Assembly (NCBI GenBank): GCA_035541435.1
Contig: DATKNL010000002.1
Coordinates: 3,962 to 67,961, forward strand
Source: Minisyncoccota bacterium
GTDB lineage: Bacteria > Patescibacteriota > Minisyncoccia > UBA6257 > 2-01-FULL-56-20
Reading direction: 5' to 3'
DNA length: 64,000 nucleotides
A program made the translations under genes and the position numbers. Positions 11,695 to 30,414 of the stretch are shown piece after piece (position 1 is the stretch's first letter; every line of letters begins with the position of its first letter). The notes under the pieces are model-generated. The model made no database searches. It saw nothing but the letters and a program-made list of their open reading frames with translations, and had not been told where the DNA came from.

Positions 11695-11696
11695 TC

Positions 11697-12180: not shown

Positions 12181-12199
12181 AAAATGGGGAAAACGCCGC

Positions 12200-12227
12200 T
12201 TGACGCATCGAAGCGGTGCCGTACGAT
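12200..12227 (+). promoter_or_regulatory. Sigma70-like promoter TTGACG-N16-TACGAT
   Basis: Seen directly; drives the candidate sRNA. Confidence 0.5.
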
Positions 12228-12233
12228 AAAAAG

Positions 12234-12463: not shown

Positions 12464-12487
12464 TGGAGCGTGCACCAACGACGGCGC

Positions 12488-13108
12488 TCAGCGATGGAAT
12501 CCGAGGTCTGCTGGATTGAAGTCGCCCGATATGCGGCCGACCGATCCCCCGCGCTTTTCGAAATCCTCGCGCAGTTTCGAAACCTCGTCGGCGAGCGCCA
12601 CGGTCTCCTGGGGCAGCTCCTTGCGCTTGATGCGCCACTTGGACCAGTACTCGATGACAAGCTTGCTGTCGCCGAACACGTGCTTCGCGCCCTGCGCCTG
12701 CGCGATCTCGAGCGCATAACGGAGCGCGAGCAGCTCGCCGTAGTTGTTGGTGGCTTCGTCGTTGCCGACGAGATGCTTGCCGAAGCGGTTGAGTTCGGAC
12801 CGCGGAACGGCCTTGTGCAGCAGGTCCTTGCCGCGCTCGTCGGTCACGCTCACTTCGACGCCCGCGCCACGGCCGGTGCCGGCGTCGAAATAGATGCCCG
12901 GCTCGAGTCGCGGGGCCCGTTTGGCCTCATACATGGCGCCGCCCGCAAGCCAGGCTTCGGCGTCATCTTTCGAATCGAACGCCTTGAAGCGGGCGCCGGT
13001 CCTGCCCGACACTTTCGCTTCGGTCTCCTTCCAGTCGGTCGTGATGCCCGTCAGGTTCCCGTCGGGAACGAAATAGGCGTAATATTTCTGTTTTTTGGCC
13101 GGACTCAT
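12488..13108 (-). CDS. rnhA: Ribonuclease HI with N-terminal hybrid-binding (Cauli_VI-like) domain
   Basis: YYAYFVP...KAFDSKDDAEAWL HBD; catalytic DEDD context YFDAGTG, GNDEATNNYGELLAL, FGDSKLVI. Confidence 0.7.
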   Translation of the reverse strand: MSPAKKQKYYAYFVPDGNLTGITTDWKETEAKVSGRTGARFKAFDSKDDAEAWLAGGAMYEAKRAPRLEPGIYFDAGTGRGAGVEVSVTDERGKDLLHKAVPRSELNRFGKHLVGNDEATNNYGELLALRYALEIAQAQGAKHVFGDSKLVIEYWSKWRIKRKELPQETVALADEVSKLREDFEKRGGSVGRISGDFNPADLGFHR

Positions 13109-14070
13109 GAATGTGGCGCGGCGTTCAGGGCTTCGACCATCTTCGGAACCGCCTGATCCACGGCTTTGCGCGAGGTGAAGTTGACCGCACCAGCGCCCCA
13201 GTGTCCCCCGCCGCCGAACCGCGCGAGGAGCGCGCCGAGGTTCACGTTGCCGGGCTTCATCCAGGCGTTGTCGCCGATGCCCACATGGAACTGGCCGTCC
13301 TTCTTCGTGATGCGGATCGCATAGCGGATCTTCGGCTTCAGAAAATAAGGGGCGTAGCGCAGCGTCTCGACGTTCGCCTTCTCAAGGTCGATGACCGACA
13401 CGCGGCCTGCGATCTTCAGGTTGCGCCGATAGAACGCGAGCGCTTTCATGTTCTTCGCGCGCAGCTTCGTGACGACGCGCGCGATCCGCGGCTGCTTTGC
13501 GATCATTGGGAGCGGCTTCGTGGCAAAATCCTCGATCATCCGCTGCGCGGTCGCAGGGTTCTTGCGCGTTTCGTCGATGAAGGCGTCGAGCTGCGTCTCG
13601 ACGGTGGTGAGATAGATCGTTTCGCGCGGCGTTCGGTAGCGCGCGCCATCAACGATGTCGGCCCGCTTCACAAGGTCCCCGATGAGGCGCGGCGGCTTCC
13701 AGCCGAAGTTCTTCTTGAGCGATTCGAAAACGAGCCGCGTGCATGAGACATAGGACGGATCAAGCACCCGCTCGCGGGACGGACGATAGGATTTCTTCCA
13801 GGACTCCTTCTTGAACGTGGTCGGATGGTGGTCGAACCACCAGGCTGCGGCCGGATGATAAAAAAAGTCGACGACGACGGCCGGATTCCGCCTGCCGGCG
13901 AACAGCCGGTGCCGCGCGAAAAAACGCTCGCTCATCCATTGGTCCTGCAGGTCGAAATCGACGGCGGCAAAATGGCCAACGTCGTCCCCCCGGCTGCGCA
14001 GGAACGCCGTCATGACGGCCGCCGACGCCCGTCCGTCGAAATCGTTATGAAAATAGATGTCGTAAAGCAT
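13105..14070 (-). CDS. DHH-DHHA1 family phosphoesterase (NrnA-like nanoRNase/pAp phosphatase)
   Basis: HNDFDG (motif I), FDHHP (DHH), GGGGHWGAGA (DHHA1 GGGH); start at internal ATG 14070. Confidence 0.6.
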   Translation of the reverse strand: MLYDIYFHNDFDGRASAAVMTAFLRSRGDDVGHFAAVDFDLQDQWMSERFFARHRLFAGRRNPAVVVDFFYHPAAAWWFDHHPTTFKKESWKKSYRPSRERVLDPSYVSCTRLVFESLKKNFGWKPPRLIGDLVKRADIVDGARYRTPRETIYLTTVETQLDAFIDETRKNPATAQRMIEDFATKPLPMIAKQPRIARVVTKLRAKNMKALAFYRRNLKIAGRVSVIDLEKANVETLRYAPYFLKPKIRYAIRITKKDGQFHVGIGDNAWMKPGNVNLGALLARFGGGGHWGAGAVNFTSRKAVDQAVPKMVEALNAAPHS

Positions 14071-14107
14071 CGATAACAATGATGATCCCGTCCGCTGGGT
14101 GCGTGCG

Positions 14108-15331
14108 CTATTTCTTGACGAACGCCTCCTTCGGGGACAGCGAGCTAGCGCGCCGGGCCGGAATGAAGCCGGCCGCAAATCCGATGAGCCCCGAAACGGC
14201 GATAACGACGAGTATAAACCAAAGCGGCGAAACGAACAACGCGAACGCGACACCGCCGTAACGTTCCGCGATGAGGCTCACGACGAAGTTGAAGAGCTGC
14301 CCGATGCCGACGCCAAGCCCGATGCCAACGACGCCGCCCGCAAGGCCCATGACGACCGCCTCGGTGAGGAAGAGCATCTTCACGTCCTTGTCGGTCGCCC
14401 CGAGCGCCTTCATGACGCCCACCTCATAGGTCCGCTCAAGGAAGCCGACGATCATCGTGTTGAACATGCCGATCGCCGACACGATGAGGGCCGCAATGCC
14501 GAACACGCCGAGGATGATCGTGATGATGTTCGTCACCTGCTGCGCCTGCCGCACGAGGTCGATGTGGGCCGAGATGATGAACCCCTGGCCGAGAAGCGAG
14601 CTCCTCAAATTTGTGAATGTCGCGTCGTTCTTCGCTTCGACATAGACCTCCTTATAGAAGGGAGGCGCTTTGGGGAGCGAATTGGCAGAAACGACGACGG
14701 TCGGCGAAAGCGTATCGTTTGCCACGATGCCGGTGACCGGCAGGAGGCTGGTCGAGGTCACGTCGTATGCCGGACCGTTGTTCGGTCCGGGATAGAATGC
14801 CGTGACAAGGACCTGCTTCCCGATCGTCGACGGGGTCGATGAGAGGTTGAGCAGCCTGAGCGCCTGGCTCGAGATCACGACGCCGCCCGACGGTCCGAAC
14901 GGCTTGCCGATGTCGGGAAGGGAGCCGGAAAGGTCGAAATAGTCGGGATCGGCGATGTCGACCAAAACCAGGCCCGACGAGCCGCCGGGCATCGACACCG
15001 CCCCCGAGAATTCGGCGACCGGGCTCACGACGGCGACATCCGCCATCGCCTTCACCTGGTCGACCTTCGCCTGGTCGATCACGATGTTGCTGTCGGACGG
15101 ATAGGTCGCGCAGCACGTGATGAGCGACTGGGGCGTCGTGATGAGCTTGCCGAGCAGGATGTCCTGCAGGCCGTAGCCCAGCGAGACAAGCACCACGACC
15201 GTCGCGATGCCGACCGACGTGCCGAGGACGGTCAGGACGGTGCGCAGCGGCTTCGCGGAAAAGCTCCTGATCGAAAGGCGGACGAGGTTCCTGAAGCCGA
15301 GCTCGTGCGGGATGACGTCGTGGTGTTCCAT
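14108..15331 (-). CDS. ABC transporter permease, FtsX/MacB-like with large extracytoplasmic domain
   Basis: N-terminal TM, ~220-aa periplasmic region, C-terminal 3 TM FtsX fold (ERTYEVGVMKALGA). Confidence 0.75.
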   Translation of the reverse strand: MEHHDVIPHELGFRNLVRLSIRSFSAKPLRTVLTVLGTSVGIATVVVLVSLGYGLQDILLGKLITTPQSLITCCATYPSDSNIVIDQAKVDQVKAMADVAVVSPVAEFSGAVSMPGGSSGLVLVDIADPDYFDLSGSLPDIGKPFGPSGGVVISSQALRLLNLSSTPSTIGKQVLVTAFYPGPNNGPAYDVTSTSLLPVTGIVANDTLSPTVVVSANSLPKAPPFYKEVYVEAKNDATFTNLRSSLLGQGFIISAHIDLVRQAQQVTNIITIILGVFGIAALIVSAIGMFNTMIVGFLERTYEVGVMKALGATDKDVKMLFLTEAVVMGLAGGVVGIGLGVGIGQLFNFVVSLIAERYGGVAFALFVSPLWFILVVIAVSGLIGFAAGFIPARRASSLSPKEAFVKK

Positions 15332-15334
15332 GGC

Positions 15335-16654
15335 TTAGCGGTGCGACGGCGCCGTCGGCGCGAATGACGACAGCTGGGGATGCCCTTCCTTCAGGATGAA
15401 TTCCAGGCGCTCGCAGATGCGGTGCGCCGTCGGCGTCGCGAAGCCGAGTCCGGCGCGGCTCCGCGGCAGGCTGAGGATTTCGGAAACGTGCTCCGGGGTG
15501 ATGACGCCGCGGATCCGCTCGTTGAGCACCTCGTCAAGCTGCATGACCTGCAGGCTGTTCAGCACGCCGTGGTAGTCCTCGAGAAGCCACCGCCTCAGCT
15601 TCTCGATGTCGTCTTTGAGCGGCGCCTCGCGGTCGGTCTCGAGCTGATGATAGATGTCGCCCACCGTGCGGCGTTCAGCGATCACGTCCTCGATGATGGA
15701 ACTCACCTTGGCGGCCTTCTGCCGCCACAGTCCCAATCCCCCCTCGCGCCACGGACGGTCGAGCACGTTCCGGAAGACGTCCGCGTCGATCTTGCCGTCG
15801 AGCCGCTGGGCAAGGAAGAATTCGAACCGCTTCAGCTCGGGCGCGGCATAGCCCCTCAGGAACAGGTTCGAGAACGAATGCGCGGCAAGCTGGTGCTCGG
15901 ACATCCCGGGCGACAGCCGGCCGTACATCGTCTTCGAAAGCGCCTGCTGCACGGCCTGCTCCCCCACGCCGTCCTCCTTGGTGACGACGCCGTCCTTCAT
16001 ATAGAAAATCTTCTTCGCGTCGCGCAGGCTCCACGCCTCATGGGTCACCATGATGATCGTGCGGCCGTCCTTTTCGTTGAGCTCCTTCAGGAACTGCAGC
16101 ACCGTGTCGGCGTTCGATGAATCGAGGTTGCCGAGCGGCTCGTCCGCGATGATGATCGGCGGGTTGTTGGCGAGGGCGCGCACGATGCCCACGCGCTGCT
16201 GCTGGCCGCCCGAAAGCTCGTCGGGATAGCGGTCGGCAAGGTGCGCGATGTTCACGCGCTCAAGCAGCTTCATCGCCTCGCGCTTCGAACGGTCCTCGGA
16301 CACGCCGAGGAAGGACATCGGCAAGATGACGTTCTGCACGACGGTGAGCGACGGGATGAGGTTGAACTGCTGGAAGATCATGCCGACGCCGATCTGCCGG
16401 TAGATGGCGAGCTCCTGCCGCGTGAACGTCGATATGTCGCGGCCGTTGATGACGATCCTGCCGTCCTGACCCGGCTCGATGCCCGAAATGAGATAGAGCA
16501 GCGTCGTCTTGCCGGACCCCGACGATCCGAAGAAGGCCGCGTATTCCCCGGGGTAGATGTCGCACGAAACGTCCTTCAGCGCGTGATATTCGTTCGGCTT
16601 GCCGCGCTCGTACCAAAAATTGACGTTCTCGAGCCGGATGATGGGTTCGCTCAT
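15335..16654 (-). CDS. ABC transporter ATP-binding protein (MacB/LolD-like) with ~210-aa C-terminal extension of unknown function
   Basis: Walker A GSSGSGKTT, signature LSGGQQQR, Walker B IIIADEP, H-loop; extension residues ~225-439. Confidence 0.8.
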   Translation of the reverse strand: MSEPIIRLENVNFWYERGKPNEYHALKDVSCDIYPGEYAAFFGSSGSGKTTLLYLISGIEPGQDGRIVINGRDISTFTRQELAIYRQIGVGMIFQQFNLIPSLTVVQNVILPMSFLGVSEDRSKREAMKLLERVNIAHLADRYPDELSGGQQQRVGIVRALANNPPIIIADEPLGNLDSSNADTVLQFLKELNEKDGRTIIMVTHEAWSLRDAKKIFYMKDGVVTKEDGVGEQAVQQALSKTMYGRLSPGMSEHQLAAHSFSNLFLRGYAAPELKRFEFFLAQRLDGKIDADVFRNVLDRPWREGGLGLWRQKAAKVSSIIEDVIAERRTVGDIYHQLETDREAPLKDDIEKLRRWLLEDYHGVLNSLQVMQLDEVLNERIRGVITPEHVSEILSLPRSRAGLGFATPTAHRICERLEFILKEGHPQLSSFAPTAPSHR

Positions 16655-17094
16655 GGGTGGACGGCCTTCCCGACGACGTTGTTGATGATCTCGACCAGGT
16701 CCTTCGGCATGGTCTGCTCCTTGTGGATATAGCCGTCGGCCCCCTTCGCTTCGGCCTCCTCCTGGAATTCCTTCTCCGAATGGCCGGAGAAGATCAGCAC
16801 CTTGATGTCCTTCGTCGCAGGATCGCGCTTGATCCGCTCGAGGAAGGCGAAGCTGTTCTCGGGATCGATGATCGTTCGGTCCTCCACCTTTTTCGGGATG
16901 GCGAGGTCAAGGAAGACGACGTCGGGCCGCGACGCCGGATCGGCGACGGCCTTTTCGGCGTCGTCGAGGTTCTGGGCTACCGCGAGGTCGCAGGTGCGCT
17001 CGAACCCGTAAATCCAGAAGACGTCGTGAAAATAGATTCTGATGATCTCGTCGTCGTCCACCAGGAGTATTCGCGTCTTGGGGTCATGGCTCAT
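16651..17094 (-). CDS. Stand-alone response regulator receiver domain protein
   Basis: ILLVDDDE, VVFLDLAIP, KVLIFSG; start 1 nt after the giant gene stop. Confidence 0.7.
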   Translation of the reverse strand: MSHDPKTRILLVDDDEIIRIYFHDVFWIYGFERTCDLAVAQNLDDAEKAVADPASRPDVVFLDLAIPKKVEDRTIIDPENSFAFLERIKRDPATKDIKVLIFSGHSEKEFQEEAEAKGADGYIHKEQTMPKDLVEIINNVVGKAVHP

Positions 17095-17095: not shown

Positions 17096-20000
17096 TCACT
17101 TTTGGATGTTCCGCATGAACTGGAACGTGTTCTCGAAATTGTTCAGGATGACGTCGAGGATCGACTGCGACTGCTGCGAGACGATCATCGTCTGCGGCGG
17201 GAATGCCGCGGTGTTCGAGGCCTGGTCGGTCGACGCGACGCGCACGCGGTACACGGCGCCCGGCACGAGGTTCGGCACGATCACCACGTGGCTTGTGACG
17301 AAGCTCGACAGGTCCTGCACCGTATGGGCATAGGTCGACGTGGGGCCCCCTACCCCCTGGTCGTATTGTACCACGGAGTTCGCCGGCTTATCGGTCATCC
17401 AGCCGACGATCGCCTGGGCCACGTTCGGCGACTGCGGGTCGATGATCGTCTGGATCCGGATGTTCGAGATGACGGGCGCCACCGTGTCCTTCGTCGTCCT
17501 CACCGTTACCGGGCTCGCGGCGGCGATCAGGTTGCCGTTCGCCGTATTGCCCGAGACGGTCACGAGATAGGTCGACGCCGGGGTCAGGTTCTGCACCGTC
17601 ACGCTGTGCACCGTGACCAGCGCGTCGTCGGTGATCGTCTGGGTGACGCCCGTCTTCGCGTCGCGATACTGGACGATCGAATTCGTGTCGCCGTCGGTCG
17701 TCCACGAGACCTGGAAGCTTGTCGGCGTGACTTTCGATACCTGCGGAACCACCTTGGCCGCGGCCGTGATGAAGGTGACGTCGCCGCTCTTGCCGAAGAC
17801 GCCCGGGATGCTGAACGATTCCGCCATCGCGTGATAGAGCGTGTTCGGCTGCAGGCCCGTGACCGTCACGGTGTGGGTCGCCACCTTGGTATTGACCTCC
17901 GACGACTGGGCGTCATAGGGATTGGCGGTCGATGTCGCGCCCGTGAAGTCGGCGTCGGTCGCATAATAGACCACCGAATAGGATTTGATGTTGGTCGTCC
18001 AGCGCACGGTCGCGCTGTTCTGGCCGACGTCGGTCACGACGGGCTGGCTGAGGAACGGGGGCACGAGGCTCGGGAGGGCCGAGGCGATGCTGTTCTCGAT
18101 CTCCTGCTGAAACTCATAGGCGTTCGCGATCGTGGTCGAGGACGAGAGCGAGGCCTCGGTGAGGTACTGGGTCGCGAAGGTCGCGTCGGTGGTCGACGCC
18201 TCGTTGCCGGACCGGTCGATCGCCCGTACGTAGAAATGATAGGTCGTGCCCATGACGAGCCCCTTCGCCGAGATGGTGTGGACCGTGCCGAACGCGCGGT
18301 CGGCGGCGGCTAACCCGTAATCGGTGCTCGTGCCGTAATCCACGAAGCCGACCGCCGGCTCGTCGGTAATGAAGCTCACGGTCGCGTCGAACGGCGTCGT
18401 CGTGGCGACGACGTCCGTGATCTTGGGCGGCACGGTGTCGGCCGCGCTCGTCACGACATAGCCGGTCGAATAGACGTACTGCGTCTTCGGGGTGTCCTGC
18501 GTCGCGAACGAATAATCGCCCGACACGCCCTCGCTGCCGGCGCTCGAGTCGGACCGGACGCGGTAATGATAGGTGGACGCCGGCACGAGGTCGGACAGGG
18601 TGACCGCATGATAGGTGCCGAGCGTGGGGTCGAGCGCCGTGCTCGACGGATAGGTCCCGGTCGCCGAACCGTAGTCCACCTGGCTCGTGCCGTTGCGGTC
18701 GGTGCTCCAGAGGATCACCGCCGTCGACGTGCCCGTGATCGGCGCGCTCACCCCCGTGATCGTCGGCGGACGGTGGTCGGTCGTCGTGAACTGGTAATAG
18801 TGGCTGAAGTTGTTGTCGAGGTGCGGAACGCCGTTCGCGTCGTCGGACTCGAGGTAGAACTCATAGGTCGTTCCCGGCGCAAGGCCGTCGATCACGACCG
18901 AATGCTGGAAGGGCGCCGTGCCGCCGACGAGCGTCGACGTGCCGACGTCCATGACCGCGCCTCCCCCGCTCGCCGGGACGAAATAATGGACGATCGAATC
19001 CGAATCCATCGACGTCTGCCAGCCGATGATCGCCTCGGTGTCGCCTGCATAGGTCGTCGTCACGCCCGTGAAGACCGGCGCGAGGGTCGTGAACGTCTGC
19101 TCGGTCGACGTCGCCTCGTTGCCCGCCGCATCCTTCACGTGGATGACGTAGTAATAGGTCGTTTCTGCCGCGAGGTCCGAGAGGAAGATCTCGTGATTCG
19201 CCGCGAGCGTCGACGTGGCGACGCTCGCCGTGTAGGCTTCGGTCGACGTGCCATAGAGGATGGTTCCGTCGGTGAACTTGCTGGTCGACCAGGTGATGGC
19301 CGCCGAATCGCCCGAGACGAACGGCACGGCGACGTTCGAAATGAGCGGCGACTGGGAATTCGTGGTCGTGAACGAATAGTAGGCGCCCGCGCTGTTGTCG
19401 ATCGCGACATCGCCGATGCCGTCGGTCGACTGGACGTAGAAATAATAGGTTGTGGACGGCGTGAGGCCGCCGAGGGTTATCGCGTGATGGAACGGCGCCG
19501 CGCCTCCGACGGACGAGGCGTTGCCGGTCGACGTCGCGAAGGAACCGGGCGTCGTCGCATAGAAGACATAGCCGTTCGCATCGACGTTCGTGTCCCACGC
19601 CACCGTCGCGCCGATATCGGACGGCGAAGACGTGACGTCCGTGATGACGAGCGGCGGAGCGACCGGCGCGAGGGTCGTGAACGTCTGCTCGCCCGACGTG
19701 GCGGCATTGCCGGCGTTGTCGACCGACTTCGCCACGTAATAATAGGTCGTCGAAGCGGCGAGGCCGGCGAGCGACGCAACATGCGATGCCGTCATGGGCG
19801 ACGTGTCGCCAAGGGCGGTCGATGACGCATAGATGCCCGATGCCGTTCCATAGAGGACCTGCGAATTGGAAAGCTTGTCCGTCGTCCACGAGACCGTTGC
19901 CACCGTCTGGCTTTGGGCCGAGGCGCTCACGCCCGTGATGACCGGCTTCGCGCTGTTCGTCGTCGTGAACTGGTAATATTGGCCGCTATTGCGGTCGATC

Positions 20001-23000
20001 GTCGTGTCGCCGTACGGGTCGACCGACTGCACGTAATAATAGTAGGTCGTCGACGGCGTGAGGCCCGTGATGACGAGGGCGTGGGACGTCGTCTGGGTCG
20101 AGCTCACGGCCGATCCGCTGATCGTCGAGGTCGATGTCCCGAAATAGACGCCCGAGTCGCCGTTCGAACCGGTGGTCCAGGCGACCGTCGCGGTGAAGTC
20201 GGTCGTCGTTGCCGAGACTCCCGAGATCGAGGGGCCCGGCGGACTGAGCGTCGTCACGGTGGAGGTGGCGAAGCTCTCGTTGCCGAACTGATCGACGGCG
20301 TGGATGCGGTAATAATAGAGCGTCGTCGGCGTGAGACCGGTGATCGACTGCGAGTGCGAGGTCGTGTAGGAATTGTCCAATGTGGTCGATGCGCCATAGG
20401 ACGTCGTCGTGCCATAGGCGATCTGCGACGTCGCGCCCTTGTCCGTCCCCCAGGTAATCGTCACGTTGCTCTGGCCGACGGCCGGGGTCTGGATGCTCGA
20501 GATCGCGGGCGGAACCGTGTCTTTGGCGGTCGTGAAGGAATAATAGGCGCCCCCGTTCGAATCCTTCGTGCCGTTTCCATATTGGTCGGTCGAGCGGACG
20601 TCGAGATAATAGGTCGTGGACGGCGTGAGTCCGGAAAGCGTCACCGAATGGTTCATGGCGAGCGTCGTGGTTCCGATCGTCGAATAGGGCGAGAACGCGA
20701 GGCTCGTCGAATAGTCGACGTTCGCATCGGCCGCCTTGTCGGTCGCCCACGTGATGGTCGCGGTCGAGGTCGCAACGCCGCTCACCGTCGTGCTCGTGAT
20801 CACCGGCCCGAACTGCAGCGTTGCGAACGACTGGCCGGACGACGTCGCGACGTTGTTCCCCGAATCCGTCGACTGCACATAGAAATAATAGGTGGTCGAC
20901 GCGGCAAGGTTGTTGAGTGTCAGGTCGTGGAACGTGACATAGGACGAGGTCGGCCCCGCGACGGAGTTCGGATAGGTCCCGGATGCGGTCCCATAGAAGA
21001 GGGCCGAGTTCGCCGGCTTGTCGGTCACCCAGTTGATCTCGGCGGAATTCTGCGACGGGTTCGCGTTGATCGACGAGATCTGCGCCGGATGGCTGTTCGT
21101 CGCCATGAACGTGTAATAGGCGTAGTTGTTGTTGTCGACGGACGTGTTGCCGATCGAGTCGACCGACTGCACGTAGAAATAATAGGTCGTCCCCGGCACG
21201 AGGCCCGTGATGTTCGCCGTGTGGACATAGGGTCCCGATCCGCTTTCGAGTGCCGGCGCCGAGCTTGCGTTGCCCTGCGCAAGCTGGGCCGACGAAGCGG
21301 CATAGAACACGAATCCGGTCGAATCGACGTTCGTGTTCCACGTCACGATCGCCGACGTATCGAGCGATGACGTCGCCACGTTCGAAATGGACGGTCCCCC
21401 GCCGCGGCCGGTCGGCGTGATGAACACCTGCGGCGAGAAGGCCGAAACGTTGCCCTTGGTGTCGGCGACCCTGACCTTGTAGTAATAGGCGATGTTGTTT
21501 GGCATGAGTCCCGTGTCGCCGAAATAGGGATTGGTCGTCGTCGCGTACGGGGCGTAGCTGCCCGACGTCGACCGCCAGATGTCATAGCGAAGGAAGTTCG
21601 ACGCCGTGCTTGTCGCCCACGAAAGGTAATCCGAATAGACGCCCGTATAGACGTTCGACGTGTCCTTCACGACGATGCCCGTCGGCGCGGGAGGCATGGT
21701 GGCCGTAAAGGCATAGTCGTTGCCGTAATTGTCGACGACCTCATAGGACAGCGTCGGCGACGTCGACGAGGAGAAGATCCACGATATCGTCCCGGTCGCG
21801 AATGAGCTGCTGAGGGTCTGCCATTGGCCGCTCGTCGGATTGAGGCCGTCGGCTGCGGCCGACGAGCTGCCGTTCGCAAACCGATACTTCACGGAACCGT
21901 TGCCGAGGAATGCGAACGAAAGCGCTCCCTGCGAGATGTCGGCGACGATCGTCTGTCCCGTCGCCCACGTCGATACGTCTCCGTCGGTGTCGGTCACCTT
22001 CATGCGATAGAAATAGGTCTGCCCCTGCACGGCGCCGTTGTCGGTAAAGGAATTCGACGACTGGTTGGTGCTCGTATAGATCGAAGCGAACGCACCGCCG
22101 GACGAACGGTCAAGCTCATAGGACGCAAACGCGGCTCCGGGCGCATTCGCATAGGACGACCACGAGATGATGTTCCCCGACACGGACAGGTTCTGGGGCG
22201 ACTGCGGGGCCGCGTTCGAAACGACGATATCGTTGCCATAGACGTCCTGCACCTCGGCATAGGCCGTCAATCCCGCCCCGAGCACGAGCGACTTGGTGCC
22301 GCTTGCCGTCCCGGCCGGCGCCATGGTCCACGGCACCGATGACGAGGGCGTCGAGGACGAGATGCTGGTCGTCGCGAACCGGTACATGAACCCGCTCGCA
22401 TCCGCAAAGGAATAGGTCAGGGTGTTCGAAGCGATGTTCAGGTTGGTGAGCGAGGCGGTCGGCGGCTGCGTGTCGATCGTGAACGCCGAACTGGTCGCCG
22501 TCGCCGTGTTGTTCGCAAGCTGATGGTCGTCGAGCGTCACGCGGATCTGCGAGCTTGTCGCATAAGCTGACCCGATGCCGGGTTCCGCAGCGGGATTCCA
22601 GATGACGGTCTGGTTGATGAACGAGGTCGTCGCAAGCACGATGTCGGACGTCGCATTCGCCGTCACGAACTGCGTCATCGTCTGCCATCCCGATCCGACA
22701 TTATATTGATAAGTCGGCGTCACGGTTCCCGTCGCATGCCCGTTCGCGGCCCCGTCCGTCGTATAGTCGATGTCCTTGAAGCGATAGGTGAACGTGACAT
22801 CGCCCACATGGCTCGCGTCGGTCGTCGTCGTGTTGTCCGCCTGCGTGATGCCCGTTCCCCCGCCATAGGACGCGTCGAAGGCCGGCGCGGAGTTGACAAC
22901 GTACTTCACCGTAACACCCTGAACGGCTGGCGCGGTCACGCCGTTCGAGGTCTCGGTGACCTGATACTGCCACCACCGGGAATTCGATTTCAGTGCCGCA

Positions 23001-26000
23001 GGGATGGCGGATCCGCTGCACGAAACCGAAGGATACGCCGAGAAGACGACGTCGGCACCCACGTCGGTCGTTCCGAAGCTCTGGTTCGGGAACGCTCCCG
23101 CGCTCGCGGCATAGACGCCGGCACTGCCCGTAAGCACCCCGTTCGTAATCGGGAAAGCAGCCGAGCCGCTCGGCCAGGAATTTGGGTCGGCGTCATTGTA
23201 GGAGACGACATAGTTCTTGCCCGCTGTAATGGTGAGCGGCGTCGCCAGGTTCTGCTGCTGCCATCCTGACGCCGATTCGCCGGTGAATGTCGTCGATGCG
23301 AGCAGGACATGGCTCGTGGCGTCCCAGATGTTTCCGACGTGGGTTCCCGTGTTGCCGGCCAGCTTATAGAAACGGACCGCGGTGATCTGCCCCGCTTGCG
23401 CGCTCGAAAAGGTCGTGCCGAGCTCGGTCCAGCCGTACGTTATGCCTCCATTCGAAAAAGTCTGATTCGTATGGACGCTCGATGTCGCCACAGCCGCCGT
23501 CGTACAGCCGGCCGTAGATTCGGTGAAGTTCGACCAGGTCGTTCCAAGGCCCGCCGAGGACGTTGCCGACGAGATGGCGACGGTGACGCCGTTTCCCGTC
23601 GAGGTCGTCTCGCTCCAATCGACTTCGCCGATAACATCGGACGGATCGGTCGAATCGTACGGCTGGGACTTCAGCGTGCCGAGACTCGCGTACCGAGACG
23701 GCGTATAGAACCGCTCGGAAATGTTGCTGTAGGTGCTGAGGTCGGTTGAATCGTAAAGGAAGCCGATTGTGCCCGTACTCGAAATCATGGGGGTGTAGCT
23801 GCCGTCATCCTGGATGTAAAGGAGGGTACTCGAAGCGATCGTGGTCGAAGCCGACCACGTCTGCCCCCCGTCGGTCGATTGCTGCATGAGGAGCAGATGG
23901 GATGTCTGGTTGATATAGGAAAGGATGAGCGTGCCGCTCGAATATGCGAGTGAGGACAACCGCGGATTCGTCGGCGTTACGAAGCTTGCCGACGTCGGCG
24001 TCGAGGTCCCGCTGCCGGTATAGATATTGAGGCGGTTCTGACCGTTGTAGTCGTAAACCACATAGGTCTTTCCGGTGCCGTCCACGATGATCGAGGGGCT
24101 CATATGGCTGAGGCCGTCCGCCGAACTTAGGGCGACCTGCGAACTCCAGGAGGTTCCGCCATTCGTCGAATAGGCAAACATGGGATAGAAAGAAACCCCG
24201 TCAAGCTCCTTCGAGGAATAGACGAGATAGAGGATGTTGCCGGGGCCTTCCGCCAGTGCCGGCACTTGCATCGCGTTGCCCGTGCCCGAATAGTTGATCG
24301 TTCCGGCGAGGGACCAGGACTGCCCGTTGTTGGTCGACTTATAGATGTCGATGGCCGTCGTGCGCGAGGTCGCGAGGTAATAGTTGCCGCTGTAGGCACC
24401 CCGCGTGAGGCCAATGCCGTTTGCGTTGTAGTTGTATCCCGACGTGGTTGCCACGGCAACAAACGACCACGTTGACCCGTTGTTCAGCGAATAGCGGGTC
24501 ATTACGCCCATATACGGGTTGACCTCTTTCGCGGTATAGGCAATAACGATCGATCCGTTATTGCCGGCGATTTGGACGGTATTCACCCCGACCGCTGACG
24601 GGACGAACATGCTTGTCGTGCTTGCCGTGAGGGCGACGGGCGTACCGCTCGCCGAATTGATGTATTCGAGGTTGTTGACGAAATGGTTCGGGTCGGCATC
24701 GAGGGACAGATAGGCAGCATGCACCGTGCCGCTCGAATCCTGGAAGGAATAAACGTTGGATGCGGTGGGGTTGCCCCAGAGCTGGGAGACGTCAGTGCGG
24801 GCGCTCCAGGTCGCCCCGCTCGACGTGGAGTAGCGGTACGCTATGTTGAAAAGCGACGGATTGAATGCCTCTGATTGATCCGTCACGTGAATCTTGCCGC
24901 TTGCATCGACCCCAGCGGCAGGAAAACGATCGCTGGAATTGCTGAGGTTGACGCTCGATGTAGCGCACAGGGTGTTCCAGTTGTCACAATAATTGAGGGC
25001 TCCTGCGGCCCATTGATAGACGAACCCGATCTTGCCGAGACCTTCTATGAACGCGCTGGTTCCGTTGGTGATGGTGTTCTGCGAGCTCGTGACCGGCGCG
25101 CTCCACGAGGAATAGTTCGTCGAGGTCACGAAGTATGAAAACGAGGTTATGTTGTTGATGTAATTTATGTAAGCGGTATTCGAGGCATCTACGAGCATCT
25201 GGCTGACATAATAATTGGTATTCACGGGTCCATTCGTGATGTCGATCCGGTTGTGCCAGTTATTGGAGTTCCTGTAGGCGATCTGGGAGAGCGATGACGA
25301 CGCCTCGAATGATCCGTAGGAAATATGAATGATGCCGTTCGGAGCGATCGCGACGCTGGGATTGGCAACGTTGCCGCCGGTCGTCGATGTCGTGACGTCG
25401 GTTCGTCCTGACCACGATTGCCAATTCGACGACGAAGATGCCGATCGCAGCACGACATTGAGCAACGCGGTGCCTGAAAATTCCTGTGAGGTATAAGCGA
25501 TATAGACGGCGTTGTTCGCGTCGACCGCGATGCTCGGCGAAGCCGCACTCTTGTTCGCGGTTGCCACCACCACTGGAGCCGACCAGACCTGCCACGAGGT
25601 CGAGGCAAGCGCGTAACGGTACGACACGTTCGTCGCCCCGGATTCGGTCGAATCATAGGCGAGATGGACGTTGCCGGCGCCGTCGACCGCCATCGAAAGG
25701 TGGTTATAGGTGAGGCCCGACGTCGCGTTGGTGATGCAGACCAGCGAGTTCCAGTTCTGCGAATCGCGATAGACAAGGTTGTTGAACCCGTTACACTCGC
25801 CGGAATTATAAACCACATGAACGATGCCGCTCGTCGAAATGACCATCGCATTGTAGCCGGTACCGGCCGACCACAGGAGCTTCGGAACGTTCTGCGTCAG
25901 GTCGATGCGGCTCCCGAGCGATGCCGTCGTCGTTGCAAGCGACAGGTTCGTCGACGTCGTGACGCTTGTCGCGCTCGCGTATTGGGTCGATGTCGGTGCG

Positions 26001-26143
26001 GGACTTGCGAGGGTTCCCGCCGTCTGTCCCCCGCTCCACGAGCTCTGGGTGAAGGTGTATGTCGTCGCCTGCGCGACGCCGAACACGCAGAACGACAGCG
26101 CGCCTACGATGAGGCCAACGATAAGGCCGCTCCGTTCGTGCAT
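17096..26143 (-). CDS. Giant secreted surface protein (~3015-3069 aa): signal peptide, Asp-box/BNR repeat region, then >=15 tandem Fn3-like ~100-aa repeats
   Basis: Signal peptide MHERSGLIVGLIVGALSFCVFGVAQA; Asp-boxes SLNNGSTWS, STNNGQSWS, STNGGTSWS, STDGGQTWS; repeats with ITWxTDK...YGT...LxGLxPxTTYY(Y/F)xVxSxDxxGN. Start could also be 26170 or 26305. Confidence 0.8.
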   Translation of the reverse strand: MHERSGLIVGLIVGALSFCVFGVAQATTYTFTQSSWSGGQTAGTLASPAPTSTQYASATSVTTSTNLSLATTTASLGSRIDLTQNVPKLLWSAGTGYNAMVISTSGIVHVVYNSGECNGFNNLVYRDSQNWNSLVCITNATSGLTYNHLSMAVDGAGNVHLAYDSTESGATNVSYRYALASTSWQVWSAPVVVATANKSAASPSIAVDANNAVYIAYTSQEFSGTALLNVVLRSASSSSNWQSWSGRTDVTTSTTGGNVANPSVAIAPNGIIHISYGSFEASSSLSQIAYRNSNNWHNRIDITNGPVNTNYYVSQMLVDASNTAYINYINNITSFSYFVTSTNYSSWSAPVTSSQNTITNGTSAFIEGLGKIGFVYQWAAGALNYCDNWNTLCATSSVNLSNSSDRFPAAGVDASGKIHVTDQSEAFNPSLFNIAYRYSTSSGATWSARTDVSQLWGNPTASNVYSFQDSSGTVHAAYLSLDADPNHFVNNLEYINSASGTPVALTASTTSMFVPSAVGVNTVQIAGNNGSIVIAYTAKEVNPYMGVMTRYSLNNGSTWSFVAVATTSGYNYNANGIGLTRGAYSGNYYLATSRTTAIDIYKSTNNGQSWSLAGTINYSGTGNAMQVPALAEGPGNILYLVYSSKELDGVSFYPMFAYSTNGGTSWSSQVALSSADGLSHMSPSIIVDGTGKTYVVYDYNGQNRLNIYTGSGTSTPTSASFVTPTNPRLSSLAYSSGTLILSYINQTSHLLLMQQSTDGGQTWSASTTIASSTLLYIQDDGSYTPMISSTGTIGFLYDSTDLSTYSNISERFYTPSRYASLGTLKSQPYDSTDPSDVIGEVDWSETTSTGNGVTVAISSATSSAGLGTTWSNFTESTAGCTTAAVATSSVHTNQTFSNGGITYGWTELGTTFSSAQAGQITAVRFYKLAGNTGTHVGNIWDATSHVLLASTTFTGESASGWQQQNLATPLTITAGKNYVVSYNDADPNSWPSGSAAFPITNGVLTGSAGVYAASAGAFPNQSFGTTDVGADVVFSAYPSVSCSGSAIPAALKSNSRWWQYQVTETSNGVTAPAVQGVTVKYVVNSAPAFDASYGGGTGITQADNTTTTDASHVGDVTFTYRFKDIDYTTDGAANGHATGTVTPTYQYNVGSGWQTMTQFVTANATSDIVLATTSFINQTVIWNPAAEPGIGSAYATSSQIRVTLDDHQLANNTATATSSAFTIDTQPPTASLTNLNIASNTLTYSFADASGFMYRFATTSISSSTPSSSVPWTMAPAGTASGTKSLVLGAGLTAYAEVQDVYGNDIVVSNAAPQSPQNLSVSGNIISWSSYANAPGAAFASYELDRSSGGAFASIYTSTNQSSNSFTDNGAVQGQTYFYRMKVTDTDGDVSTWATGQTIVADISQGALSFAFLGNGSVKYRFANGSSSAAADGLNPTSGQWQTLSSSFATGTISWIFSSSTSPTLSYEVVDNYGNDYAFTATMPPAPTGIVVKDTSNVYTGVYSDYLSWATSTASNFLRYDIWRSTSGSYAPYATTTNPYFGDTGLMPNNIAYYYKVRVADTKGNVSAFSPQVFITPTGRGGGPSISNVATSSLDTSAIVTWNTNVDSTGFVFYAASSAQLAQGNASSAPALESGSGPYVHTANITGLVPGTTYYFYVQSVDSIGNTSVDNNNYAYYTFMATNSHPAQISSINANPSQNSAEINWVTDKPANSALFYGTASGTYPNSVAGPTSSYVTFHDLTLNNLAASTTYYFYVQSTDSGNNVATSSGQSFATLQFGPVITSTTVSGVATSTATITWATDKAADANVDYSTSLAFSPYSTIGTTTLAMNHSVTLSGLTPSTTYYLDVRSTDQYGNGTKDSNGGAYYSFTTAKDTVPPAISSIQTPAVGQSNVTITWGTDKGATSQIAYGTTTSYGASTTLDNSYTTSHSQSITGLTPTTLYYYRIHAVDQFGNESFATSTVTTLSPPGPSISGVSATTTDFTATVAWTTGSNGDSGVYFGTSTSTISGSAVSSTQTTSHALVITGLTPSTTYYYYVQSVDPYGDTTIDRNSGQYYQFTTTNSAKPVITGVSASAQSQTVATVSWTTDKLSNSQVLYGTASGIYASSTALGDTSPMTASHVASLAGLAASTTYYYVAKSVDNAGNAATSGEQTFTTLAPVAPPLVITDVTSSPSDIGATVAWDTNVDANGYVFYATTPGSFATSTGNASSVGGAAPFHHAITLGGLTPSTTYYFYVQSTDGIGDVAIDNSAGAYYSFTTTNSQSPLISNVAVPFVSGDSAAITWSTSKFTDGTILYGTSTEAYTASVATSTLAANHEIFLSDLAAETTYYYVIHVKDAAGNEATSTEQTFTTLAPVFTGVTTTYAGDTEAIIGWQTSMDSDSIVHYFVPASGGGAVMDVGTSTLVGGTAPFQHSVVIDGLAPGTTYEFYLESDDANGVPHLDNNFSHYYQFTTTDHRPPTITGVSAPITGTSTAVILWSTDRNGTSQVDYGSATGTYPSSTALDPTLGTYHAVTLSDLVPASTYHYRVRSDSSAGSEGVSGDYSFATQDTPKTQYVYSTGYVVTSAADTVPPKITDVVATTTPFDATVSFITDEPAVGFVDYGTSTDYGLAAADRAFGTVHTISAKGLVMGTTYHFYVRAIDRSGNEASTTDATFATQYLTEASLSSSTTIANAYEFQQEIENSIASALPSLVPPFLSQPVVTDVGQNSATVRWTTNIKSYSVVYYATDADFTGATSTANPYDAQSSEVNTKVATHTVTVTGLQPNTLYHAMAESFSIPGVFGKSGDVTFITAAAKVVPQVSKVTPTSFQVSWTTDGDTNSIVQYRDAKTGVTQTITDDALVTVHSVTVQNLTPASTYLVTVSGNTANGNLIAAASPVTVRTTKDTVAPVISNIRIQTIIDPQSPNVAQAIVGWMTDKPANSVVQYDQGVGGPTSTYAHTVQDLSSFVTSHVVIVPNLVPGAVYRVRVASTDQASNTAAFPPQTMIVSQQSQSILDVILNNFENTFQFMRNIQK

Positions 26144-26346
26144 TCGGTATGAGCTGGTGTTCGGTGACATGCCGATCCGTATCCGTATAACTATCCTTTC
26201 CTTCATTGTAGGCCCGGAACAGCCGCTTAAAGCGAAAACTGTGGAAAAACGGGCCTTATGGGCGAAGCTTGGATGCTGAATCCTGCTAAACATTCTGGCA
26301 AACATTTCTGTTTGCCATATGTTTTTATTGAATTATCGGCTTTTCG

Positions 26347-27553: not shown

Positions 27554-29944
27554 CTATTCCCTCAGCCGCCGATAGATGTCGGCCTCAATCGCATGCCGTT
27601 CCTCACCGTATTTCACGCGGGAATACTCCTTCAGCTTCTCGGCGAATACCTTGTCCCCGCCGTTCCACGAGGTCGTTTCGATGCGGATATTGAAGGGTTT
27701 CGACGTCTGGCCATTGATCAGGATCTTCGCATAGGCGTTCAGGTTGTCGATGTTCAGCAGGTCGTTCTGGTCGAAAACCGGCTCGAACTGCTTCACGAGG
27801 AATTCCGCGTCCTGCACGCCGACGCGGAAGACGAGCTGTGAGCCCACGTTCCCGAAGACCGCGTCCTTGATCTTGTCGGTGAGCTGCGCGATGAACTGGT
27901 GAGCCATCGTGAGGTTGAGGCGGTATTTGCGGGCCTCGGACAAAATGGTCGAGATGGAATCGGTCGTGAAGTTCTGGAACTCGTCGATATAGAGGTTGAA
28001 GTCGCGGCGGCGGTCGGCGTCGGCGATGTCGACGCGCGAAAGCGCGGCCATAAGGATCTTGCCGGTGAAGATCATGCCGAGAAGCCCCGCATTGATGTCG
28101 CCGATGCGTCCTTTCGCCAGGTTGATGAGCAGGATCTTGCCGTCGTCCATCACCTCGCGGAAGCTGAACGCCGACTTCGCCTGGCCGATGATCGGCCGCA
28201 TGTAGTCGTTAGAAATGAAGTTGTTGAACTTCGACGTGATGTAGGGCGTCATGTTGGCGAGCGACGCCTCGCCGCCGGCCTTCACGGCCTCCTTTTCCCA
28301 GAAGTCCGCCACGATCGGATTGCGGATGCGCGCGAGCTTGCGCGTGCGGTACGCGGCGTCGGTGAAGACGCGCGGGACCTCCATGAGCGTCGCGGGCTCG
28401 TTCGCCATGTCCTCCATGAGGAGCAGGAGCGCGTTGCGCATGTACTGCTCGAACATCGGCCCCATCGTCTCGGGCGGGAACAGCTTATTGAAGATGCTCT
28501 GCATCTCGTTCACGATGAACGTCTTCTCTTCGGGACGCTCGTGATTGAAGTCGAGCATGTTGAGGCCGAGCGGGCGCGCGAGGTCGCCGGGGTTGAAATA
28601 GATGACGTCGTCGATGCGTTCGCGCGGCACGAACCCGAGCGCGTTCTCGACGAGGTCGCCGTGCGGATCGATGATCGCGACGCCCTTGCCCGCCCGGATG
28701 TCCTCGATGATCATGTTGCCGAGGAGCGTCGACTTGCCCGTGCCGGTCTGGCCGATCACATAGACGTGCCGCCGGCGGTCGTCGTCGGTGATGAAGACCG
28801 GCTTCGCCTGCCCCCTGAACGAGCTCTCGCCGACCTTCAGGCCCCGCTGCGGCAGGTTGTCGGGCGCGGGCGCCTCCTTCGACTTCAGCCATTTCACGTG
28901 CGGCGTCTCGGTCGACGAGATCGGGAAATGATAGAAGCTCGCGATCTCCTCGGCCGAAAGCGTCATCGCCTCGCCGTCGGCGAACAGGCGGTAGATGAAA
29001 TTGTTGATGCAGGATTTCGGGCTGCGCGGCTTCACCACCTTGAACTCGTTGCGCAACGGGCTGGCGAACTGGTTGAATCCGGCTGCCAGGCCGTCCAGGA
29101 TGTCGTCGGCCTGGAAGGGCGATCCCGCCGAGGCGACCAGCCGCACGTTCACCCTGAAGAGCGGCTTCGAGATCTTCATCTGCAGGGCCTTCACGGCCTC
29201 GTCGTCCACCACGCGGTCCTCCTGCTTCTGCTCCTTGGTCTTGGGGTTGAAGACCTCGACGACATCCGACGCCTCGACGGGAAAACCCTTTCCGAACACC
29301 TTTTTCAGCGATTCACCCTTCTTCAGCAGCTTGATGTAGTCCTGAATCGTCTTCTTGAAGCCGCCGGATGCCGGCGTGACGACCATCTGCAGCGCGGCGC
29401 CTTCGCCGACCTCGTTGATCTTCGAAAATGCGCCGATGATCCCCTCGAACGAGTCGATGCCGAGCTCGGCATAGGTCTTCACCGGCAGCGCGAAATTCTC
29501 TTTCTGCAGCAGGAACGCCGCCGCGGTCGCCCCGTGGACGTTGAAGATGTTGAAGTCGTCCTGCACGAGCTCGACGCTCGCGCCGGTCCACAGTCCCTGG
29601 ATCTGCTTCGCGGCGGTCTCGGCGGCGCGCTTCGGCACGCCGATATAGAAATGGATCTCCTCGCCCACGTGCGGCACGGCCATCTCGAAAACGACCGGCT
29701 GCCTGATCGCCGACAGGCCGCCAAGCAGCTGCTCGAAGTGCGCGAGTTCCGCCTTGAAGTCACCGTGTTCGGCGTTGCCGTTGGACGAAGCAGCGGACGC
29801 TCCGCTGCGCGGGATCTTTATGAGAAAAAGCGATGTCCCGAACGATGCGGCAATGCGCCGCCGCGCGATGGAACGCGCGATGAAATAGACGGCAACGCCG
29901 GCAAGCGTTCCGAGAACGACAGAAAAAAGGACGTACAATCCCAT
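27554..29944 (-). CDS. Membrane-anchored P-loop ATPase, VirD4/TraD-like (type IV coupling protein family)
   Basis: N-terminal TM, Walker A GQTGTGKST, Walker B LYIDEFQNF; true ATG at 29944. Confidence 0.5.
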   Translation of the reverse strand: MGLYVLFSVVLGTLAGVAVYFIARSIARRRIAASFGTSLFLIKIPRSGASAASSNGNAEHGDFKAELAHFEQLLGGLSAIRQPVVFEMAVPHVGEEIHFYIGVPKRAAETAAKQIQGLWTGASVELVQDDFNIFNVHGATAAAFLLQKENFALPVKTYAELGIDSFEGIIGAFSKINEVGEGAALQMVVTPASGGFKKTIQDYIKLLKKGESLKKVFGKGFPVEASDVVEVFNPKTKEQKQEDRVVDDEAVKALQMKISKPLFRVNVRLVASAGSPFQADDILDGLAAGFNQFASPLRNEFKVVKPRSPKSCINNFIYRLFADGEAMTLSAEEIASFYHFPISSTETPHVKWLKSKEAPAPDNLPQRGLKVGESSFRGQAKPVFITDDDRRRHVYVIGQTGTGKSTLLGNMIIEDIRAGKGVAIIDPHGDLVENALGFVPRERIDDVIYFNPGDLARPLGLNMLDFNHERPEEKTFIVNEMQSIFNKLFPPETMGPMFEQYMRNALLLLMEDMANEPATLMEVPRVFTDAAYRTRKLARIRNPIVADFWEKEAVKAGGEASLANMTPYITSKFNNFISNDYMRPIIGQAKSAFSFREVMDDGKILLINLAKGRIGDINAGLLGMIFTGKILMAALSRVDIADADRRRDFNLYIDEFQNFTTDSISTILSEARKYRLNLTMAHQFIAQLTDKIKDAVFGNVGSQLVFRVGVQDAEFLVKQFEPVFDQNDLLNIDNLNAYAKILINGQTSKPFNIRIETTSWNGGDKVFAEKLKEYSRVKYGEERHAIEADIYRRLRE

Positions 29945-29990
29945 CAATTCATTCTATCACAGCGATCCGCCCGCGATCCGGCGCGGTCCG

Positions 29991-30401
29991 CTATTTGACG
30001 ATGCCGCGGCGCTGCAATTCGGGATACAGGCGGCCGGCGAGCGCGTCATGAAACGCGTCCTGGACGAAGTACGGCGACTTGGCCGACTCGTCGAACGCCT
30101 TGCCGATCCCCTGCTTCAGGGCGACATCGATGAGGTATTCGATCTCGAGCTTCGTTTCGGGCGATGCGGCGTCGGCATAGGCAGGCAGCGGTCCCTGCGC
30201 CGTCGGCGCGGCGTTCGCCGGTGCGGCCTGCTGCGGGCGCGGGACGGGGGCAAGCGCGCGGAGCGATTCGCGGATCAGGTCCTGCTCGCTCGCGCTCTGC
30301 ATCTCAGGCGCCTCGCGGTGTTTCTCGATCTCGGCCGCAAGCTGCCGCATGTCGGACTCGAGCGCCTGTTCGAAACTGAACGAATTGGGTGCGTCACTCA
30401 T
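29991..30401 (-). CDS. Hypothetical protein (137 aa)
   Basis: ORF with internal ATG 30401 (MSDAPNSF...). Confidence 0.4.
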   Translation of the reverse strand: MSDAPNSFSFEQALESDMRQLAAEIEKHREAPEMQSASEQDLIRESLRALAPVPRPQQAAPANAAPTAQGPLPAYADAASPETKLEIEYLIDVALKQGIGKAFDESAKSPYFVQDAFHDALAGRLYPELQRRGIVK

Positions 30402-30414
30402 ATATAATAGAGGT

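Follow-up and report, generated by a model that had tools for sequence, protein, structure and literature searches.

Fibrillar adhesins of monoderm bacteria, the class of Monzon et al. (PMC8286594, PMC9210967) that includes S. aureus Cna and other LPXTG adhesins, typically consist of an N-terminal head, a stalk, and a C-terminal anchor, and about half of them carry no known anchor (PMC8286594). Giant surface proteins and adhesins of candidate phyla radiation (CPR) bacteria have been tied to attachment (PMC8080830, PMC10633639, PMC11809585). They include proteins of 1392-4163 aa in Vampirococcus lugosii (PMC8080830) and Fn3/FhaB proteins of >5000 aa in Patescibacterium danicum (PMC11809585), and a Saccharibacterium requires adhesins in order to grow epibiotically (PMC10633639). 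RTX-type giant adhesins have a type I secretion system (T1SS) with a dedicated ATP-binding cassette (ABC) exporter, as in LapA-LapBCE and SiiE-SiiCDF (PMC6272769, PMC8277102). Here, we analyzed a stretch of 64,000 nucleotides of contig DATKNL010000002.1 (GenBank assembly GCA_035541435.1), hereafter the window, and in it a 9-kb gene for a giant protein of 3015 aa together with the response regulator, ABC ATPase, and permease genes that follow it. A giant Fn3 protein in a CPR genome was to be expected from the earlier reports.

The best explanation of this locus, to which we assign a probability of about 0.6, is that the giant protein is a Sec-exported fibrillar adhesin of a Paceibacteria-class (Patescibacteria/CPR) bacterium and that its conserved C terminus works with the neighboring ABC module. 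It is likely a surface fiber with a predicted binding head, and the locus probably encodes a host-attachment device with a dedicated membrane partner. A preliminary description of this DNA had reported a secreted protein of ~3000 aa with a sialidase-like region and an array of Fn3-like modules; it was silent on the DUF4082 domain, the conserved N- and C-terminal modules, the exchange of heads between relatives, and the downstream response regulator, ABC, and FtsX genes. We compared the giant protein with syntenic orthologs from three close relatives (L001, L002, and L005) and with two nonsyntenic giants of the same family (P0001, 2047 aa, and P0002, 2590 aa). The features of the giant gene and its partners are as follows.

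17096..26143, minus strand: giant gene, 3015 aa plus stop; an upstream ATG lies at 26305, with further in-frame ATGs between
26066..26143, minus strand: predicted signal peptide (aa 1-26), with cleavage at A-Q-A, from the only hydrophobic segment and the conserved A-x-A
25919..26065, minus strand: conserved mature N terminus (aa 27-75), starting TTYTFTQSSWSGG, 40-51% identical to orthologs
24824..25918, minus strand: head part 1 (aa 76-440), BNR_4-like, with W-rich motifs in blades of ~55 aa; P0001 and P0002 have related heads
23654..24823, minus strand: head part 2 (aa 441-830), Asp-box (BNR_2) region, from four strict Asp-boxes and Pfam
23009..23653, minus strand: post-head domain (aa 831-1045), with flanks common to L001, L002, and L005
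23066..23428, minus strand: DUF4082 (PF13313; aa 906-1026), interrupting the post-head domain, 101-105 bits versus a gathering score of 28.4
22232..23008, minus strand: conserved Ig-like middle region (aa 1046-1304), 37-48% identical to and collinear with orthologs; Ig-like Pfam hints are weak
18170..22231, minus strand: Fn3 stalk (aa 1305-2658), 13 Fn3 modules and one non-Fn3 spacer (aa 1401-1488), from Pfam and a repeat profile
17099..18166, minus strand: conserved C-terminal module (aa 2660-3015, 356 aa), linker, three Fn3 modules, and terminal helix (alignment A1)
17099..17179, minus strand: predicted terminal amphipathic helix SQSILDVILNNFENTFQFMRNIQK, hydrophobic moment ~0.5
16651..17094, minus strand: REC-only response regulator, 147 aa, starting 1 nt after the giant-gene stop; co-located with family members
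15335..16654, minus strand: long ABC ATPase, 439 aa, with a MacB/LolD/FtsE-type nucleotide-binding domain (NBD; aa 5-235) and a 200-aa C-terminal extension; overlaps the regulator gene by 4 nt
14108..15331, minus strand: MacB-type permease, 407 aa, beginning 3 nt beyond the ABC gene, with a MacB_PCD domain (extracytoplasmic) and an FtsX domain (transmembrane)

The giant gene is a single uninterrupted open reading frame (ORF) that extends over 3069 codons (17096..26305) if read from the furthest possible start, in agreement with the 9-kb ORF of the preliminary description, which did not state the strand. The start at 26143 is the most plausible; the predicted protein then opens MHERSG..., its N terminus reads MHERSGLIVGLIVGALSFCVFGVAQA up to the cleavage site, and TTYTF follows. 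This start was preferred because an A-x-A site directly before (A/T)TYTFTQxxWxGG is kept in 12 family members, which also supports cleavage by signal peptidase I. Residues 3-21 are the only hydrophobic stretch in the whole protein, and the signal peptide seen at first reading is thus upheld. A lipoprotein reading was rejected: by eye, the Cys at aa 19 lies outside any lipobox, and it is not conserved among the orthologs. Ser and Thr make up 27.7% of the protein and Cys 0.2%, and the GC content at third codon positions (GC3) is 0.82, similar to that of adjacent genes.

Tandem Fn3 modules dominate the second half of the protein. Two Pfam models scored above gathering, Pur_ac_phosph_N at 287 bits (14 stretches) and fn3 at 160 bits (6 stretches), and a hidden Markov model built from the repeats placed 16 Fn3 modules with confidence in the interval aa 1305-2988. 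The preliminary count of at least 15 modules was therefore correct, and its tandem array of ~1900 aa is real but spans ~1,680 aa; the motif that it gave for the module ends, taken as TTYY(Y/F)xVxSxDxxG(N/D), occurs exactly in three modules only and in a relaxed form in 13. Between head and stalk, DUF4082 appears to have been inserted inside the conserved post-head domain, and among the syntenic orthologs it is shared with L005 only. The flanks of that domain (..TESTAGCT.. and ..CSGSAIPAALKSNSRWWQY..) are contiguous in L001, L002, P0001, and P0002 and are split by DUF4082 in the window protein and in L005 (L005 14000..15400).

The protein ends in a conserved module that resembles no classical anchor. 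A Pfam scan, hydrophobicity analysis, and motif searches of the giant protein found no LPXTG, PEP-CTERM, or RTX motif (0 RTX repeats), no C-terminal hydrophobic segment, no SLH or other S-layer domain, and none of the other listed anchors; in this classical sense, the earlier remark that no C-terminal anchor is visible was right. The helical linker of the module carries ..FQQEIENSIASALPSLVPPF (family pattern FQxEIExxIxSxLPSLxPPF), and the terminal helix follows the family pattern SxxDxIxxNFxxxFxF; neither linker nor tail matched Pfam. An AlphaFold2 model of the module from a seven-sequence alignment had a mean predicted local distance difference test (pLDDT) score of 80.8, with confident Fn3 domains. 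A fold search with the module returned generic Fn3 tandems only (fibronectin, tenascin) and was uninformative for the helices. We consider this C-terminal module a candidate new anchor.

The giant gene, the REC regulator, the ABC ATPase, and the permease form a tight operon with spacings of 1, -4, and 3 nt. By sequence similarity, with Pfam matches to ABC_tran, MacB_PCD, and FtsX, the transporter is a MacB-superfamily (type VII) ABC transporter. The NBD is closest to MJ0796, YtrE, BceA, MacB, and LolD (E values of 1e-44 to 1e-53), and FtsE is also of this type. Among solved structures, the permease is nearest to MacB (5gko), with which it aligns over its full length (aa 18-404), and it matches YtrF, LolC/E/F, and FtsX in part. 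NCBIfam scores fell far under the equivalog cut-offs (FtsX_Gpos, 34 versus 225; lolCE, 37 versus 362; MacB, 89 versus 966), indicating that the transporter is probably not FtsEX, LolCDE, or MacAB proper. The cassette includes no membrane-fusion or outer-membrane component. The 200-aa extension of the ATPase matched nothing in Pfam or the PDB, nor anything in a protein search limited to shared 5-mers. It is conserved in the ABC genes beside other family members, and among 80 PGK-centered control loci (~51 Patescibacteria) it was present only in L001, next to the giant gene.

The association of giant gene and ABC module recurs across relatives and metagenomes. At the PGK locus, a giant gene stands directly after PGK in L001, L002, and L005. 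In six relatives with no giant gene there (L003, L004, and L006-L009), PGK is followed by the next conserved ORF and all three partner genes are absent as well; syntenic relatives have either the whole set of four or none of it, so the four genes behave as one ~12-kb unit. The closed chromosomes OY970358.1, OY970382.1, and OY970175.1 are among those without the cassette at this locus. Gene order is giant, regulator, ABC, FtsX in L001 and L081; regulator, ABC, FtsX, giant in L084, in an unrelated context; giant, ABC, FtsX in L086; and giant, regulator, FtsX, ABC in L087. The module genes are upstream and divergent in L106, L107, L114, and L143. Metagenome contigs scanned with two motifs of the C-terminal module yielded 79 loci of 29-61% GC, four of them too short to judge. 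Module genes lay near the family member in 50 of the 79, of which 40 had them at most 700 nt downstream, five ~1.9 kb downstream, and five upstream. Dereplicating the loci at 90% identity left 56 informative clusters, of which 41 were linked to the ABC module, usually with the REC-only regulator. A mobile island was also considered and rejected: no direct repeat of ≥10 nt is shared by both cassette borders and GC3 is like that of the neighbors, so there is no sign of recent insertion, though relatives differ in presence or absence.

These data make a functional linkage of some kind between the giant protein and the ABC module likely. An alternative, which we consider unlikely, is that the ABC, FtsX, and REC proteins have no functional relation to the giant protein and only share its operon or island; they could make up a pump for efflux or peptide resistance, such as one of the MacB, BceAB, or YtrEF kind. 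Several of the closest NBD relatives do come from resistance or efflux systems, the linkage is missing in some lineages, and the giant protein has its own Sec signal. Against a chance neighborhood stand the persistence of the linkage through changes of gene order, strand, and context over a wide range of GC contents, the gain and loss of the four genes together at the PGK locus, and the family-specific ABC extension, found only next to these giants in the DNA examined. A separate pump is, moreover, present in L084, the genome of P0001. There, ~7 kb downstream of the giant gene (22869..26144), genes for a YknX/RND-type membrane-fusion protein, an ABC ATPase of 236 aa, and a permease with MacB_PCD and FtsX domains make up a canonical MacAB-like set, additional to the long-ABC module upstream of the giant gene.

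Under the adhesin explanation, the signal peptide would be removed after A-Q-A, and the N-terminal 800 aa would form a distal binding head of two BNR/Asp-box-type regions, followed by DUF4082. The head would probably recognize a glycan or another surface structure of a different cell. The Ig-like and Fn3 modules, ~1,900 aa in all, would serve as the stalk, and the 356-aa C-terminal module would be the cell-proximal end; we infer this orientation from the usual plan of fibrillar adhesins in monoderm bacteria (PMC8286594). At 3-4 nm for each of about 20 tandem domains, we estimate that the fiber would be roughly 60-80 nm long. The ABC module would then be the membrane partner of the giant protein. 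Transporters of the MacB superfamily (FtsEX, LolCDE, and MacB) do mechanical work on extracytoplasmic partners, and for that reason we propose, tentatively and by analogy, that the extracytoplasmic domain of the permease may hold, release, or mechanically act on the C-terminal module in an FtsEX/LolCDE-like mechanotransmission, and that the REC protein may control the ATPase through its unique C-terminal extension. A further, rather doubtful step would have the linker and the terminal amphipathic helix dock the C-terminal module on the permease. Anchoring and actuation would then be noncovalent, with ATP hydrolysis gated by REC holding, tensioning, or releasing a host-binding fiber whose tip is exchanged by recombination.

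Several observations weigh against parts of this explanation. Module genes were lacking within at least 1.5 kb of downstream DNA at 25 of the 79 loci, which were flanked by housekeeping genes, and about a quarter of the dereplicated lineages (14 of 56) had no ABC module in the DNA examined; the partnership is therefore not obligatory, or the genes lie elsewhere. Because the giant protein has its own Sec signal, it does not need the transporter to cross the membrane. Both helices of the C-terminal module were predicted at a pLDDT of ~55-65 only. As for the head, its likeness to BNR propellers is at the blade level only, and a single-sequence AlphaFold2 model of it was unusable (pLDDT 34.6).

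The members of this Patescibacteria family share a chassis composed of the A-x-A site, the TYTFTQxxWxGG motif, the stalk, and the 356-aa C-terminal module. In 100-aa windows, the window protein was 40-51% identical to L001, L002, and L005 over aa 1-100; it had no match to them over aa 100-800, the head, which was 29-44% identical to the nonsyntenic P0001 and P0002. In common with the window protein, the three orthologs have aa 1-100 and all that follows from about aa 820-1040, but not the head. The post-head, Ig-like, and Fn3 regions were collinear at 30-60% identity, and the last 400 aa reached 65-87%, with PGK at 65% for comparison. Conservation climbs toward the C terminus, and the C-terminal module is more conserved than PGK. 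In place of the window head, L001 and L005 carry an ALK_LTK_GRD (ALK/LTK-type glycine-rich) domain and L002 carries NHL repeats; other family heads are Kelch, RCC1, Lactonase-type or Vgb_lyase-type propellers and Gly_rich_2 domains. The window head type itself recurs in P0001 and P0002. The family is thus one chassis whose head is swapped between relatives, the design expected of a host- or partner-recognition adhesin under diversifying selection.

The same chassis could instead belong to a structural coat, a fibrous layer on the cell that would serve self-protection, spacing, or cohesion between cells and have no role in host recognition. The large size of the protein, its Ser/Thr content, and its conserved chassis would suit a coat, and Vampirococcus giants have been tied to a fibrous cell surface (PMC8080830). 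We consider a coat unlikely, since close relatives differ in the presence of the gene at the same locus, hence it does not belong to the core envelope; replacement of entire heads is a mark of recognition proteins and not of lattice-forming ones, and the Pfam scan found no S-layer domain.

The sequence of the head points to an Asp-box/BNR-type repeat region, probably of two propellers. Four strict Asp-boxes (S-x-[DN]-x-G-x-[TS]-W) lie at aa 552, 603, 659, and 756, and two sites fit the pattern more loosely (aa 439 and 863); across all six reading frames of the window there is no further strict match. When aa 430-880 was scanned on its own, it matched BNR_2 at 35.4 bits, above the gathering score of 31.4 (E value of 1e-8), over profile positions 18-117 of 277 only. 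BNR_4 scored 25.1 bits over aa 75-440, just under its gathering score of 27.3 (E value of 1e-5). By motif and BNR_2 profile, the giant protein is assigned to the BNR/Asp-box repeat proteins. The mature N-terminal motif before the head matched no Pfam model.

Close relatives of the head are few. A word-indexed protein search with the 863-aa head and a scan of a genome collection returned none, and an exhaustive search of 1.84 billion representatives returned 598, only five of them below an E value of 1e-30. The top two were P0001 and P0002, with many-bladed "YRNSSNW" heads. The remainder align over one or two blades only, in many registers; those checked have strong BNR_2 matches, and some distant ones pair BNR_2 with GH43 or a peptidase domain.

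A tethered enzyme was weighed on this evidence, with the head as a catalytic exo-sialidase or other glycoside hydrolase that digests host or environmental glycans from the end of a stalk. The BNR_2 score, a weak Pfam hint of Glyco_hydro_43 in the head (E value of 0.016), and the GH43 or peptidase domains of distant relatives are in its favor. Nothing in the sequence points to a sialidase active site, though: the giant protein has no FRIP-like motif ([FYW]R[IVLT]P) anywhere, the sole R-x-P of the head being SDRFPAA at aa 406, and a PDB sequence search with aa 82-881 found no solved sialidase or other similar chain at E ≤ 10. On these sequence characters, the FRIP motif and similarity to solved sialidases, it does not appear to be an exo-alpha-sialidase (GH33). 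The BNR_2 profile is only partly covered, and in orthologous chassis the head is of the Kelch, RCC1, NHL, or glycine-rich type, all of them scaffolds for binding and not glycosidases. An enzymatic head is therefore improbable. Of the earlier reading, the several canonical Asp-boxes were found, and "sialidase-like" holds for the Asp-box/BNR repeats and not for a sialidase as such.

It is very unlikely that the giant gene is an assembly artifact made of collapsed or expanded repeats or a chimeric or split ORF: Fn3 coding sequence is repetitive and the giant gene of the related contig L081 is broken into several ORFs, but the DNA self-repeats reach no more than 78% identity and 155 nt in length (best self-match, 78% over 121 nt; longest exact repeat, 31 nt) and so too diverged for collapse to be at all likely, the frame stays open for 9.2 kb despite a 62% GC genome, and syntenic relatives in independent assemblies have intact collinear ORFs of 2476, 3062, and at least 3059 aa. 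The repeat collapse, expansion, or frameshift split feared at the outset was not borne out. On L081 (ENA ERZ25039472 contig_61633, 1..7321), the giant gene is called as at least four successive ORFs and the FtsX gene as three pieces; unlike the intact ORF of the window, this is probably a frameshift error of that assembly. A CRISPR-like or noncoding reading of the repeats was also rejected: they are imperfect, in frame, and coding, as the preliminary description had said.

The window has an overall GC content of ~62% (range, 57-66%), and the closest loci in metagenome-assembled genomes (MAGs) have 49-62%. The Patescibacteria phylum has a mean GC content of 33.6 +/- 6.7% (PMC11809585), and the source appears to be an unusually GC-rich soil lineage of Paceibacteria. 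The PGK gene lies immediately upstream of the giant gene, and it shares 57-65% identity with its counterparts in Paceibacteria/Minisyncoccia/Parcubacteria MAGs from soil, peat, and groundwater, several of which are closed chromosomes of 0.83-0.9 Mb. The VirD4-like and PMT_2 neighbors are 58-85% identical to the same MAGs. These identities confirm the early guess of an ultra-small bacterium despite the 62% GC. The claim that giant proteins of such bacteria mediate attachment follows published readings (PMC8080830, PMC10633639, PMC11809585) and would carry over to this protein by analogy. The window also carries EF-Tu, EF-G, and SecY, with a run of small genes between them that resembles a ribosomal-protein cluster.

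Next to PGK, 27554..29947 (minus strand) encodes a VirD4/TraD-like type IV coupling protein (T4CP) of 797 aa that is 67-85% identical in all relatives with or without the giant gene, and thus more conserved than PGK. No VirB4 was found among the scanned genes adjacent to it; patescibacterial T4CP genes mostly lie away from virB4 (PMC12102498). A PMT_2-family glycosyltransferase (30349..31899, plus strand), also present in relatives without the giant gene, and one or more GT2 glycosyltransferases (33426..34969, minus strand) lie 4-9 kb upstream of the giant gene. O-glycosylation of the Ser/Thr-rich fiber is conceivable. The ORF at 306..1892 (minus strand) encodes a probable second secreted protein of 528 aa, with a signal-peptide-like start, a long N/S/T/G-rich low-complexity region, and a Pro-rich linker; its C terminus has a borderline match to the OmpA family (peptidoglycan binding; 27.0 versus 27.2 bits).

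After the cassette comes a conserved hypothetical ORF (13105..14253, minus strand); in relatives that lack the cassette, this ORF stands right after PGK. Neither Pfam nor NCBIfam matched it, and by eye it shows DHH-like motifs (DFDG, DHH); the start as annotated runs into the end of the FtsX gene, and alignments with its orthologs set in near aa 37. Two regions of 1.1-1.4 kb (11121..12487 and 52390..53464) are without an ORF of the high GC3 typical here and matched no Rfam family at the gathering threshold. The window has a single tRNA-Ala(TGC) gene (58489..58562, plus strand), whose strand is opposite to that of the translation genes around it, and no rRNA gene.

Little is known of how uncultured Patescibacteria locate their hosts and stay attached to them, and genetics is available in a few Saccharibacteria only (PMC10633639). 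The chassis described here can be recognized in metagenomes from two short motifs, its variable head is an obvious candidate for host specificity, and head type could be correlated with co-occurring hosts. The literature that we found on such proteins describes neither the chassis family, nor systematic head exchange, nor the linked genes for a long MacB-type ABC ATPase, a permease, and a REC protein. That a MacB-type ABC transporter and a REC regulator recur next to this family suggests a previously undescribed way of anchoring or controlling a fibrillar adhesin. If the docking proposal is true, an FtsEX-like mechanotransmission machine would have been repurposed for regulated host attachment in monoderm ultra-small bacteria; if the ABC link is incidental, the gene would be a well-documented but ordinary giant adhesin-like gene.

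Compared with the fibrillar adhesins of monoderm bacteria, the giant protein has the same predicted plan: a signal peptide, a putative N-terminal binding head that evolves fast, a long Ig/Fn3-type stalk, and a conserved C-terminal end. It differs from them in having no LPXTG/sortase motif, SLH, LysM, choline-binding, or other listed anchor, in a propeller-repeat head outside the catalogued adhesive domains (BNR and DUF4082 are not established as adhesive), and in the genetic tie of its gene to a MacB-type ABC transporter. Judged by these characters, it would fit the fibrillar-adhesin class in all but the anchor, and it does not look like a sialidase, an RTX/T1SS adhesin, or a sortase-anchored adhesin. 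With the other CPR giants it shares ultra-small, host-dependent bacteria as a source, very large extracellular proteins of the Fn3/PKD type, and an inferred role in attachment; those of V. lugosii and P. danicum were published as domain lists, and the comparison is by description only.

The LapA and SiiE systems likewise encode a giant repetitive adhesin with a conserved C-terminal end beside an ABC transporter. Unlike these, the giant protein has no RTX repeats and carries a Sec signal peptide, and its transporter is a split MacB-type ATPase and four-transmembrane permease, not a fused T1SS exporter, with no membrane-fusion or outer-membrane gene in the cassette. Patescibacteria, the nearest relatives of the source organism, have been described as monoderm-like (PMC12102498). 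The ABC module shares with FtsEX, LolCDE, and MacB (type VII ABC transporters) an NBD and permease of the same superfamily and a large extracytoplasmic domain. Such systems act on extracytoplasmic protein partners through helical adaptors such as PcsB, CwlO, and EnvC. The module departs from FtsEX, LolCDE, and MacB in its scores below the equivalog cut-offs, in a 200-aa ATPase extension without relatives, in its REC-only regulator, and in its candidate partner, which would be a 3000-aa Fn3 fiber rather than a peptidoglycan hydrolase or a lipoprotein.

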